From NCBI RefSeq assembly GCF_003334385.1, contig NZ_QOWN01000003.1: 64,000 nt of DNA. One strand, 5' to 3'. This document shows, one piece after another, positions 3,001 through 6,000 of the stretch. A program made the position numbers. The DNA is from Escherichia coli (lineage in GTDB: Bacteria > Pseudomonadota > Gammaproteobacteria > Enterobacterales > Enterobacteriaceae). Every line of letters starts with the position of its first letter. Position 1 is the first letter of the stretch.

Positions 3001-6000
3001 CCAGCACTTAGTTTTGATACATATCTGCAGGACAATGTTAAATATAGAGTAATAATTAATAATCTTTATGGTAGTGAAATTCGGATAAGAGGTATAAATA
3101 AAGATTTTATTGGAATGGATGTCACTTCTGTATTTCGCCCAGAAAAAATGACCAATTTGATCAGTATAAAAAACAGGTTGGTTATTCACTATTTAAGGAC
3201 TATATACTATGAACAAAATTATATACATCCTGTCGGGAGCATTTTTGCTGCGATTCAAAAAAATGAGAGTCTCCTAAAGTTTCCTTCGATAATATCAATG
3301 CTTAATATCAATCTTCTTTTTAATCCACTAAATCTTCCGGGAATGGGAAGTGGTGTGCTTGAAGATATTATGAGTATTCCAGATAGTTCACTTAGAAAAC
3401 GTCTCGGGTATGAGGTTTTAAGCTTCTCGCTACAGGCACATTCATTGAGCCAGGAATGTATTGATAAGTTGGACATTTTTTTCGCTGACGATCTGTTTAA
3501 ATATGAGTCAGTATGCATCGCCGCGATGGAACATTTAAAAAGTAAGGCAACGGCCCCTATACAAAACGGACCGTTGCCAGCATAAGAATTAATGGTGTGC
3601 CAGTTCGGCGTCGTCTTCGCTATCCAGAATGGCTTTATCGGTTTGCTTCAGCCACTGGCTGGTCAGCGTGCCAGCTGTCATCGAGCCACTAACGTTTAAC
3701 GCCGTACGGCCCATGTCGATAAGCGGTTCAACGGAGATTAACAGCGCCACCAGGGTTACTGGCAGGCCCATCGCAGGCAGTACAATCAGTGCGGCGAAAG
3801 TTGCACCACCACCGACACCGGCAACGCCTGCGGAACTAACGGTAACAATACCGACCAGCGTCGCAATCCACATCGGGTCCAGCGGGTTAATGCCAACCGT
3901 AGGCGCAACCATCACCGCCAGCATTGCCGGATACAAACCGGCGCAGCCGTTCTGACCAATGGTTGCACCGAAAGAGGCGGCGAAACTGGCGATGGATTCA
4001 GGAACGCCCAGACGACGCGTTTGTGCTTCCACATTCAGTGGGATAGACGCAGCACTGGAACGGCTGGTAAAGGCAAACGTCAGCACAGGCCATACCTTAC
4101 GGAAGTACTTCAGCGGACTCACGCCATTAATGCCCAGCAGAATGCCATGCACTGCAAACATAATCAGCAGACCGAGGTAGGACGCGATAACGAAACTTCC
4201 CAGTTTGATGATGTCTTGCAAGTTAGAACCTGCAACCACTTTGGTCATTAGAGCCAGAACGCCGTAAGGGGTCAACTGCATGACCAGGCGAACCAGTTTC
4301 ATCACCCAGCTTTGTAGGGTATCGATAGCGGCTAAGACGCGTTCACCTTTCGGCGCATCATCCTTCAGCAGTTTCAATGCAGCTACGCCGAGGAATGCGG
4401 CAAAAATTACCACGCTGATAATTGACGTCGGATTGGCTCCGGTAAGATCGGCAAACGGGTTTTTCGGGATAAAGGACAAGACCAGCTGCGGAACGCTCAG
4501 ATCAGAGACTTTACCAACATAGTTACTTTCAATGGCGTTCAGACGTGCAGTTTCTGCACCACCCTGAACCAGACCTTCAGCCGTCAAACCAAACAGGTTG
4601 GTGACCAGCACACCGACCAGCGCCGCAATCAGCGTGGTAAACAAAAGCGTACCGATGGTCAGAAAACTGATTTTGCCTAACTGAGATGCGTTATGCAGAC
4701 GGGCAACCGCGCTCAGAATAGAGGCGAAGACTAACGGCATAACGATCATTTGCAGCAGTTGAACATAGCCGTTACCAACGATGTTAAACCACTGTACAGA
4801 ATCTTTAAGTACCTGGCTGTCAGAACCATAAATGGTATGCAGGGCAAGGCCAAAAACCACACCCATCACCAGACCCACCAGCACTTTTTTCGCCAGACTC
4901 CACTGTTTATGGCGGGTCTGAGCCAGCGCAAACAGCAGTACAACGAACACCACGATGTTCGCAATTAATGGAAAGTTCATCCCCGTTCTCCTGATCTTAT
5001 TATTTCTATCACTGCGTAGCAGTCATAGTGTTGGCGCAAGATTAACAGAACTGTGAGCTGGCTCTTATATTCAAATGGAATTGCTTATTCCAGAAAGGTG
5101 ATTTTTGCCTTTTTAGTATTCAACCTGATGCTTAATAAGCCGATGAAACTGGATCTGCAAGGTATTGATCATTTGCGATGACCAACGAACAGCGCTGTTC
5201 TCGGGTAATGAATGGGGCATCCATACCGACCAGACAAATAATGCCATGCAGATAAAACGTTCCAGTTGGTTGCCCTTTTGGGGAACCAGGATAGGCAAGC
5301 GGAAACGCCAGCGGCATGGCCAGAGCAGGGGAACACCGGCGGGTGTCAGCATATCGGCAAGTATGTGGCTCAAATAACCCAGCACCATTCCTTGTAGCGC
5401 ATCAGCCGGAATGAACCAGCCTTCCGGAACCTTAAGGTAAAAGGTTGCCAGCAGCGCAAATACCGCCAGCAGACTGTGGGTAAAACCACGATGCCCAAAA
5501 GCGCGGGCGATCGGTTTTGATATCCATTTTAATCGCTGCCCAAGAAACGACTTTGGGTGATCGATGTCCGGTAACAAACACGTCAGGATTGCGGAAGGGA
5601 CAATATGCCACCAGTCACCCTGTGCCAGCACGGGCGTCAGCTCGGCATTTTTGGCAAATACCGCACAAGCAATAGAAAAGAGAAGGTGACCTTCCGCCGT
5701 CATGATAAAACTCACTAAACTGTCGATACGTACAGTATAGGATTTTTATACAGTGCACGGAAGTGGTGACGGTGTAACTCTTTCTCTTAAATTGACGATT
5801 AATCCGTCAGTTGAATGCAATTTCAGATAAAGAACCAGGGGCAGCGAGATCACTGCCCCTGGTCATTAACCGAGAAGGTCTTTTGCGGTGAGTTCTGTCA
5901 GCGATGAGAGTTTGACGTCTGCTAATACAAAACGTGGATCATTTTGCGCTTCTGGCGCAGGAACGACGATGGAACGCATGCGGGCTGCTTTAGAGGCGAT

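Follow-up and report, generated by a model that had tools for sequence, protein, structure and literature searches.

The closest described counterparts of the element considered here, a pair of adjacent LexA boxes directly 5' of ydjM in a 64,000-nucleotide stretch of the Escherichia coli chromosome (contig NZ_QOWN01000003.1 of assembly GCF_003334385.1; hereafter the window), are the multiple-box operators of lexA, recN and the colicin genes and, nearest of all, the ydjM sites of E. coli K-12 and Salmonella enterica. The K-12 sites (Fernandez De Henestrosa 2000; heterology index (HI) list of Courcelle 2001; PMC4576408) occupy the same locus and have the same sequences, with no difference from those of the window. 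The two-box operator of ydjM is an already known element to which reviews and comparative studies refer, and it is neither a new member nor a new variant; the gene itself has been listed in the LexA regulon of E. coli since 2000. Tandem LexA sites at this gene are described as experimentally reported, following Fernandez De Henestrosa 2000 (PMC4951493). PMC4576408 gives the distal site, CACTGTATAAAAATCCTATA, at position -52 of b1728, as an addition to the RegPrecise site, and ydjM is placed among the LexA-regulated SOS genes (PMC6590174). A full-text literature search with the sequence string of box 1 found nothing. The new elements of the present analysis are minor and comparative, namely an invariant 18-bp spacing between the boxes, an invariant CCTATACTG across their junction and a conserved block upstream of them.

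The lexA operators, the classic tandem example (PMC4951493), also consist of two adjacent boxes just 5' of the ATG, but both have complete CTG...CAG arms and they are spaced by 21 bp (two turns, on the same face of the helix), compared with 18 bp at ydjM. In the dual SOS boxes of colicin genes the terminal positions overlap, against a gap of 2 bp at ydjM, and cooperativity has been demonstrated for colicin genes with strong-plus-weak operators (PMC4951493), whereas for ydjM it is inferred. E. coli recN is the nearest in geometry: its boxes 2 and 3 are likewise 18 bp apart centre to centre, share a TA, combine a strong with a degenerate box and have the string TATACTGTAC at the junction, where it occurs at recN box 2 in MG1655. 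Unlike ydjM, recN has a third box 22 bp upstream and its weak box is the proximal one; its induction, at 19- to 36-fold (PMC11228462), is also one of the strongest in the SOS response, in contrast to the modest induction of ydjM.

In Salmonella enterica, the ydjM operator (STM14_1605) has the same geometry as in E. coli, with boxes 14 and 32 nt from the ATG and published HI values of 9.12 and 12.85 (PMC8072944), and the two Salmonella loci retrieved here (L034 and L048) agree with this arrangement. The centre of the Salmonella box 1, ATGAATTG, is nearer to the consensus than the ACGTATCG of E. coli, giving HI values of 6.85 and 8.76, respectively, with the matrix used here. Further afield, the SAOUHSC_02424 operon of Staphylococcus aureus encodes a YdjM-domain membrane protein that is under LexA control, as ydjM is, but in a three-gene operon with a single box of Gram-positive type (CGAAAATATGTTCG) (PMC11442139). 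LexA control of a YdjM-family gene in S. aureus indicates that the link between YdjM and the SOS response is phylogenetically wide.

On the gene strand of the window, the order is 5'-CACTGTATAAAAATCCTA, TA, CTGTACGTATCGACAGTT, 14 nt and the ydjM ATG, so that box 2 is distal and box 1 proximal to the gene. The first-pass annotation, made from the sequence alone, had placed two boxes at 5720-5735 and 5738-5753, separated by 2 nt, and direct reading returns exactly these coordinates and sequences: the plus strand reads CTGTCGATACGTACAG at 5720-5735 (box 1) and TAGGATTTTTATACAG, with the reverse complement CTGTATAAAAATCCTA, at 5738-5753 (box 2), the TA at 5736-5737 being the only gap between the two 16-mers. 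As full LexA sites, the promoter-proximal box 1 is the 20-mer TACTGTACGTATCGACAGTT (5718-5737, minus strand), with the 16-bp core CTGTACGTATCGACAG running from 5735 to 5720, and the distal, degenerate box 2 is the 20-mer at 5736-5755 (minus strand), with its core running from 5753 to 5738. The TA dinucleotide (5737-5736) is common to both 20-mers, which end 14 and 32 nt upstream of the start codon; box 2 reaches back to 50 nt from the ATG, in keeping with the earlier statement that both boxes fall within 50 nt of it.

An SOS box was defined as a 16-bp palindromic core, CTGT-N8-ACAG, inside the 20-bp consensus TACTGTATATATATACAGTA. Box 1 carries both arms of this core and box 2 only the left one, having a canonical left half-site (CTGTAT) and a right half with CCTA in place of ACAG. 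The designation of box 1 as a perfect SOS box applies to its CTGT and ACAG arms but not to its 8-bp centre, ACGTATCG, which departs from the (AT)4 consensus and brings the HI to about 9; the second box had correctly been called imperfect. As LexA sites lying 1-10 bp apart, the boxes qualify as tandem sites, with a gap of 2 bp between the 16-mers and 18 bp between centres. The claim of two adjacent LexA operators before ydjM matches the tandem sites in the literature (PMC4576408, PMC8072944 and PMC4951493).

The bare core pattern does not discriminate operators from chance in this window, since CTGT-N8-ACAG occurs twice against 0.78 expected and 19 of 100 shuffled sequences reach two matches. 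For this reason a 20-bp matrix was used instead, built from 20-position counts over 25 literature sites of E. coli, ydjM being left out; the five sites of lexA (1-2) and recN (1-3) among them were verified in MG1655 DNA. Scores are Berg-von Hippel/Lewis heterology indices, in which lower values are nearer to the consensus. Scoring of both sites with a LexA matrix had been proposed as a check in the first-pass annotation, and it ranks them first and second in the 64 kb: box 1 (HI 8.76) heads the 127,962 20-mers, followed among distinct sites by box 2 (HI 10.44). In-sample, the training sites have HI values of 0.9-9.4 (recN3 9.39, polB 9.04), so that box 1, scored out-of-sample, falls inside their range and box 2 just outside it, about one HI unit beyond the weakest of them. 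The box 1 score is in agreement with the published ydjM HI of 9.0, which belongs to the weaker part of the classic SOS gene list (PMC11228462), and box 1 is a mid-to-weak operator despite its intact arms.

The possibility that both boxes are chance matches without regulatory role draws on the lack of enrichment of the bare core, and the matrix results speak against it. In 300 simulated first-order Markov sequences of 64 kb, the mean number of sites per sequence that equal or better the score was 0.13 for box 1 and 0.56 for box 2, and the chance of a site of box 2 grade within 40 bp on either side of a given site was about 7e-4. Together with the top two matrix ranks, the conservation of the boxes over many genera, the published LexA regulation and the damage induction of ydjM refute this explanation, which is given a negligible probability.

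The other exact CTGT-N8-ACAG match of the window, at 59909-59924 (CTGTTGCCGATAACAG), falls within the coding sequence of pykF. Its centre is GC-rich, its HI with the LexA matrix is poor, at above 14, and it is a chance match. The next-best matrix matches after the ydjM boxes, at HI 11.4-12.0, are at 28573-28592, 55165-55184, 44303-44322 and 42521-42540, bringing the sites with an HI of 12 or less to six, both ydjM boxes included, compared with about two expected by chance.

A single scan of species-representative genomes gave 80 orthologous ydjM loci, and counts were made over 81 sequences from Escherichia, Citrobacter, Salmonella, Enterobacter, Lelliottia, Leclercia, Kosakonia, Raoultella, Atlantibacter, Franconibacter, Trabulsiella, Phytobacter, Cedecea and other genera. 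Box 1 was found in all 81 (HI 4.8-10.9) and box 2 in 78 (HI 9.3-12.6), and the centre-to-centre spacing is 18 bp in every one of the 78 two-box orthologues, the distance to the ATG, in contrast, ranging between 13 and 23 nt. The CTG and ACAG arms of box 1 are invariant or nearly so, and its centre is variable, being ACGTATCG in Escherichia and ATGAATTG in most other genera. Judged from the alignment columns, this combination of fixed arms and a variable centre is the pattern typical of a LexA site. In box 2, CTGTAT is conserved in more than 90% of the orthologues and the right half is never CAG (0 of 81). Four divergent alleles of E. coli have identical box 1 sequences and differ in box 2 at a single position (T/C).

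Taken with the published regulation, these observations make it very probable that the two boxes are LexA operators that repress ydjM. In the undamaged cell, one LexA dimer would occupy the proximal palindrome at 5720-5735 and a second would bind the distal site at 5738-5753, which has one canonical half-site (CTGTAT), probably with the help of the neighbouring dimer. The two dimers would together occupy some 38 bp, up to 14 nt from the ATG, very probably including the -10 region and the transcription start, and RNA polymerase would be sterically excluded from the ydjM promoter. After DNA damage, RecA-stimulated self-cleavage of LexA would free the promoter and allow ydjM to be transcribed.

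The suggestion that binding at box 2 is probably neighbour-aided derives from the centre-to-centre distance, which is fixed at 18 bp. Cooperativity is a plausible interpretation, by analogy, of this fixed spacing, of the similar recN boxes 2 and 3 and of the strong-plus-weak colicin operators, and the invariant spacing is consistent with an interaction between dimers, although it is not proof of one. Cooperative help from box 1 to box 2 is considered about evenly balanced between true and false, and no measurement of cooperativity at the ydjM boxes was found in the literature accessible to the search.

The expression data bear on the strength of this repression. In E. coli, ydjM is induced 2.5- and 8.6-fold in two tabulated conditions, azidothymidine (AZT, zidovudine) and related treatments (PMC11228462), rises by log2 1.5-2.6 across an SOS time course (PMC11002266) and is up 4-fold in biofilm (PMC9742991). 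In Salmonella it is induced 2.1-fold by nalidixic acid, and a gfp fusion gave no detectable fluorescence (PMC8072944).

Several observations weigh against the proposed arrangement of two dimers repressing from within the promoter. A spacing of 18 bp would set the dimers about 100 degrees apart on the helix (calculated at 10.5 bp per turn). Box 2 is not intact in three orthologues, which indicates that it is dispensable in some lineages: its CTGT is mutated in Citrobacter amalonaticus S646 (L013) and Intestinirhabdus alba (L026), and a 1-nt insertion disrupts it in Leclercia adecarboxylata NCTC13032 (L060). The modest induction ratios mean that repression is not obviously tight, and the earlier description of it as tight is not borne out by these values. 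A scan of 5600-5900 with the standard sigma-70 consensus returned no promoter, and a relaxed scan gave weak candidates only, CCGTCA-16-TATAAA (8/12) and TTCCGT-17-TATACT (7/12). No transcription start near the site is entered in the Cappable-seq supplements, the Kim 2012 supplements give only an orthologue table for b1728, and a literature search for a promoter named 'ydjMp' found nothing. With weak promoter candidates and no start data found, the overlap of operators and core promoter can only be inferred.

The strain that lacks box 2 through mutation in C. amalonaticus, L013, has the best proximal box of the 81 sequences (HI 4.78), which may be a compensation for the lost distal site.

The preferred -10 candidate is TATACT (5734-5739, minus strand; start near 5727), which reaches from the right end of box 2 into the left arm of box 1. 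It lies in the 9-mer CCTATACTG (5734-5742, minus strand) that crosses the box junction and is invariant in all 81 sequences, and it retains the key A2 and T6 of a -10 hexamer, the best -35 at 17 bp being TTCCGT, with two of six consensus positions. On these sequence features, TATACT is probably both the -10 hexamer and part of the operators. The same bases cannot form a CAG arm as well, and this would account for the lasting imperfection of box 2. The alternative -10 candidate, TATAAA (5745-5750, minus strand; start near 5738), lies inside box 2; it becomes TACAAA in several genera and is lost in I. alba.

These promoter candidates bear on the proposal that only box 1 operates and that box 2 is conserved as core promoter DNA, with a -10-like TATAAA and an A-rich spacer, its likeness to a half-site being incidental. 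This would account for the constant absence of a CAG arm in box 2, for the position of the best-scoring -10-like hexamer, TATAAA, within it, for the single RegPrecise site (per PMC4576408) and for the three lineages without an intact box 2. It does not account for the CTG 5' of TATAAA, which is kept in more than 90% of the orthologues and misses the register of an extended -10 TGn by one base; in general, CTGTAT is retained where promoter function alone gives no reason for it, either in the spacer or just 5' of the -10, depending on the hexamer. Box 2 is, moreover, the second-best LexA-matrix site in 64 kb, and it keeps a fixed 18 bp to box 1, the spacing also found between recN boxes 2 and 3. 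The weak third box of recN is an accepted LexA site. The description of the tandem ydjM sites as experimentally reported (PMC4951493) also argues against a single operating box, and this proposal is considered very improbable.

A different position for the promoter has been put forward from genomic SELEX (systematic evolution of ligands by exponential enrichment), in which the RpoD holoenzyme binds the yniC-ydjM spacer and the hexamer pair CTGAAA-17-ATTAAT is proposed as a 'constitutive' promoter (PMC3946193). This pair, taken from the table of that paper and located by eye at 5798-5826 (minus strand), lies about 40 nt upstream of box 2. If transcription started from it, near 5791, the boxes would sit in the leader at about +36 to +73 and LexA on both of them would act as a roadblock. 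Besides the SELEX assignment, this model gains from the fact that no better consensus promoter overlaps the boxes. However, the hexamers were picked by sequence inspection in a low-resolution SELEX peak, ATTAAT has no A at position 2 of the -10, and conservation between genera covers the 75 nt from 5790 to the boxes but not the hexamer stretch. In Salmonella, the SOS boxes of LexA-dependent (bistable) genes often overlap the transcription start (PMC8072944), which also favours an operator within the promoter, and a roadblock is regarded as improbable.

Directly upstream of box 2 is the conserved block GAGTTACACCGTCACCACTTCC (5759-5780, minus strand). Over 5759-5790 (minus strand), conservation is near-complete to complete, and GTTACA, CGT, AC and CTT are invariant in the 81 sequences, which here represent at least 25 enterobacterial genera. 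GTGAC precedes the block in most genera, forming GTGAC-N13-GTCAC, and K-12-type E. coli has AAGAG in its place. Neither -10 candidate lies at a distance from the block that would suit a -35, and the block may represent a promoter element or bind a second regulator.

Several other promoter and regulator assignments were tried by eye and set aside. GTTACA as a -35 is 22 nt from TATAAA, which is too far, and the GTGACA or TTGACA of other genera has no -10 at 15-19 nt (by eye). Resemblances to the sigma-32, sigma-E and sigma-54 consensus sequences, a CRP-like TGTGA-N6-TCACA site and a marbox over GCAC were also considered by eye, and none of them fitted or was conserved.

A variant of the two-operator reading combines the block with the TATACT candidate: the right half of box 2 would be the -10 TATACT, LexA would bind there on one half-site in dependence on the proximal dimer, and the upstream block would either bind a second regulator or make up for the missing -35 as an unusual promoter element. 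This combination is considered unlikely. With a second regulator bound to the block, ydjM would combine the SOS signal with a further input. If confirmed, the conserved block and the dual -10 and half-site would be modest refinements of a known operator. The real question is the role of the YdjM membrane hydrolase in the SOS response, and the observation of the boxes does not make that more testable.

The gene under this control is an open reading frame on the minus strand (5113-5703; ATG at 5703 to 5701; 196 amino acids), annotated in RefSeq E. coli as ydjM, 'metal-dependent hydrolase'. Its product matches Pfam PF04307 (YdjM; E=2.4e-35) and the NCBIfam equivalog NF008651 (metal-dependent hydrolase; 374 bits against a cut-off of 216), and a search for a sequence-related solved structure found none. 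The matches to both families and the published damage induction agree with the reading of ydjM as an SOS gene for a putative membrane metal-dependent hydrolase.

The window is a stretch of K-12-type E. coli chromosome; a 1.6-kb query was matched in 5,424 of 5,426 complete genomes and the hxpB-ydjM spacer (181 bp compared) is 100% identical to that of a K-12 strain; coordinates convert as MG1655 coordinate = 1,815,914 - window coordinate, as derived from the MG1655 hxpB annotation, which puts the two boxes at 1,810,159-1,810,196 of MG1655. The upstream neighbour, hxpB (yniC), is co-directional with ydjM and has its stop at 5866. It is followed by an intrinsic terminator (5833-5864, minus strand) with a 14-bp stem, nine G-C pairs and a T-rich tail. 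This terminator is strong and shields ydjM from read-through, so that transcription of ydjM requires a separate promoter within the 160-bp spacer. The two boxes, 14 and 32 nt 5' of the ATG, lie in this terminator-bounded spacer together with the weak promoter candidates.

Insertion sequence IS903B splits hxpB, directly upstream of the ydjM control region, in several E. coli strains (matches H1-H8), for example at 1067-2801 of the locus of E. coli T16R (L083), corresponding to hxpB at 5866-6534 of the window. In these top BLAST matches the element is inside hxpB and the ydjM promoter is intact, and it was set aside as irrelevant to the operators.

The hxpB-ydjM spacer has no match to an Rfam family. 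Elsewhere in the window, Rfam matches at the gathering score are the small RNAs RprA (45435-45542, minus strand) and RydB (51146-51206, plus strand), the Phe leader of pheST (16638-16762, plus strand) and STnc540 (20603-20761, plus strand), all of which are expected in this region of the K-12 chromosome. Downstream of ydjM, tcyP (ydjN; 3589-4980) is intact in the window and is annotated as frameshifted in strain E. coli 720632 (1591-2981 of locus L001).

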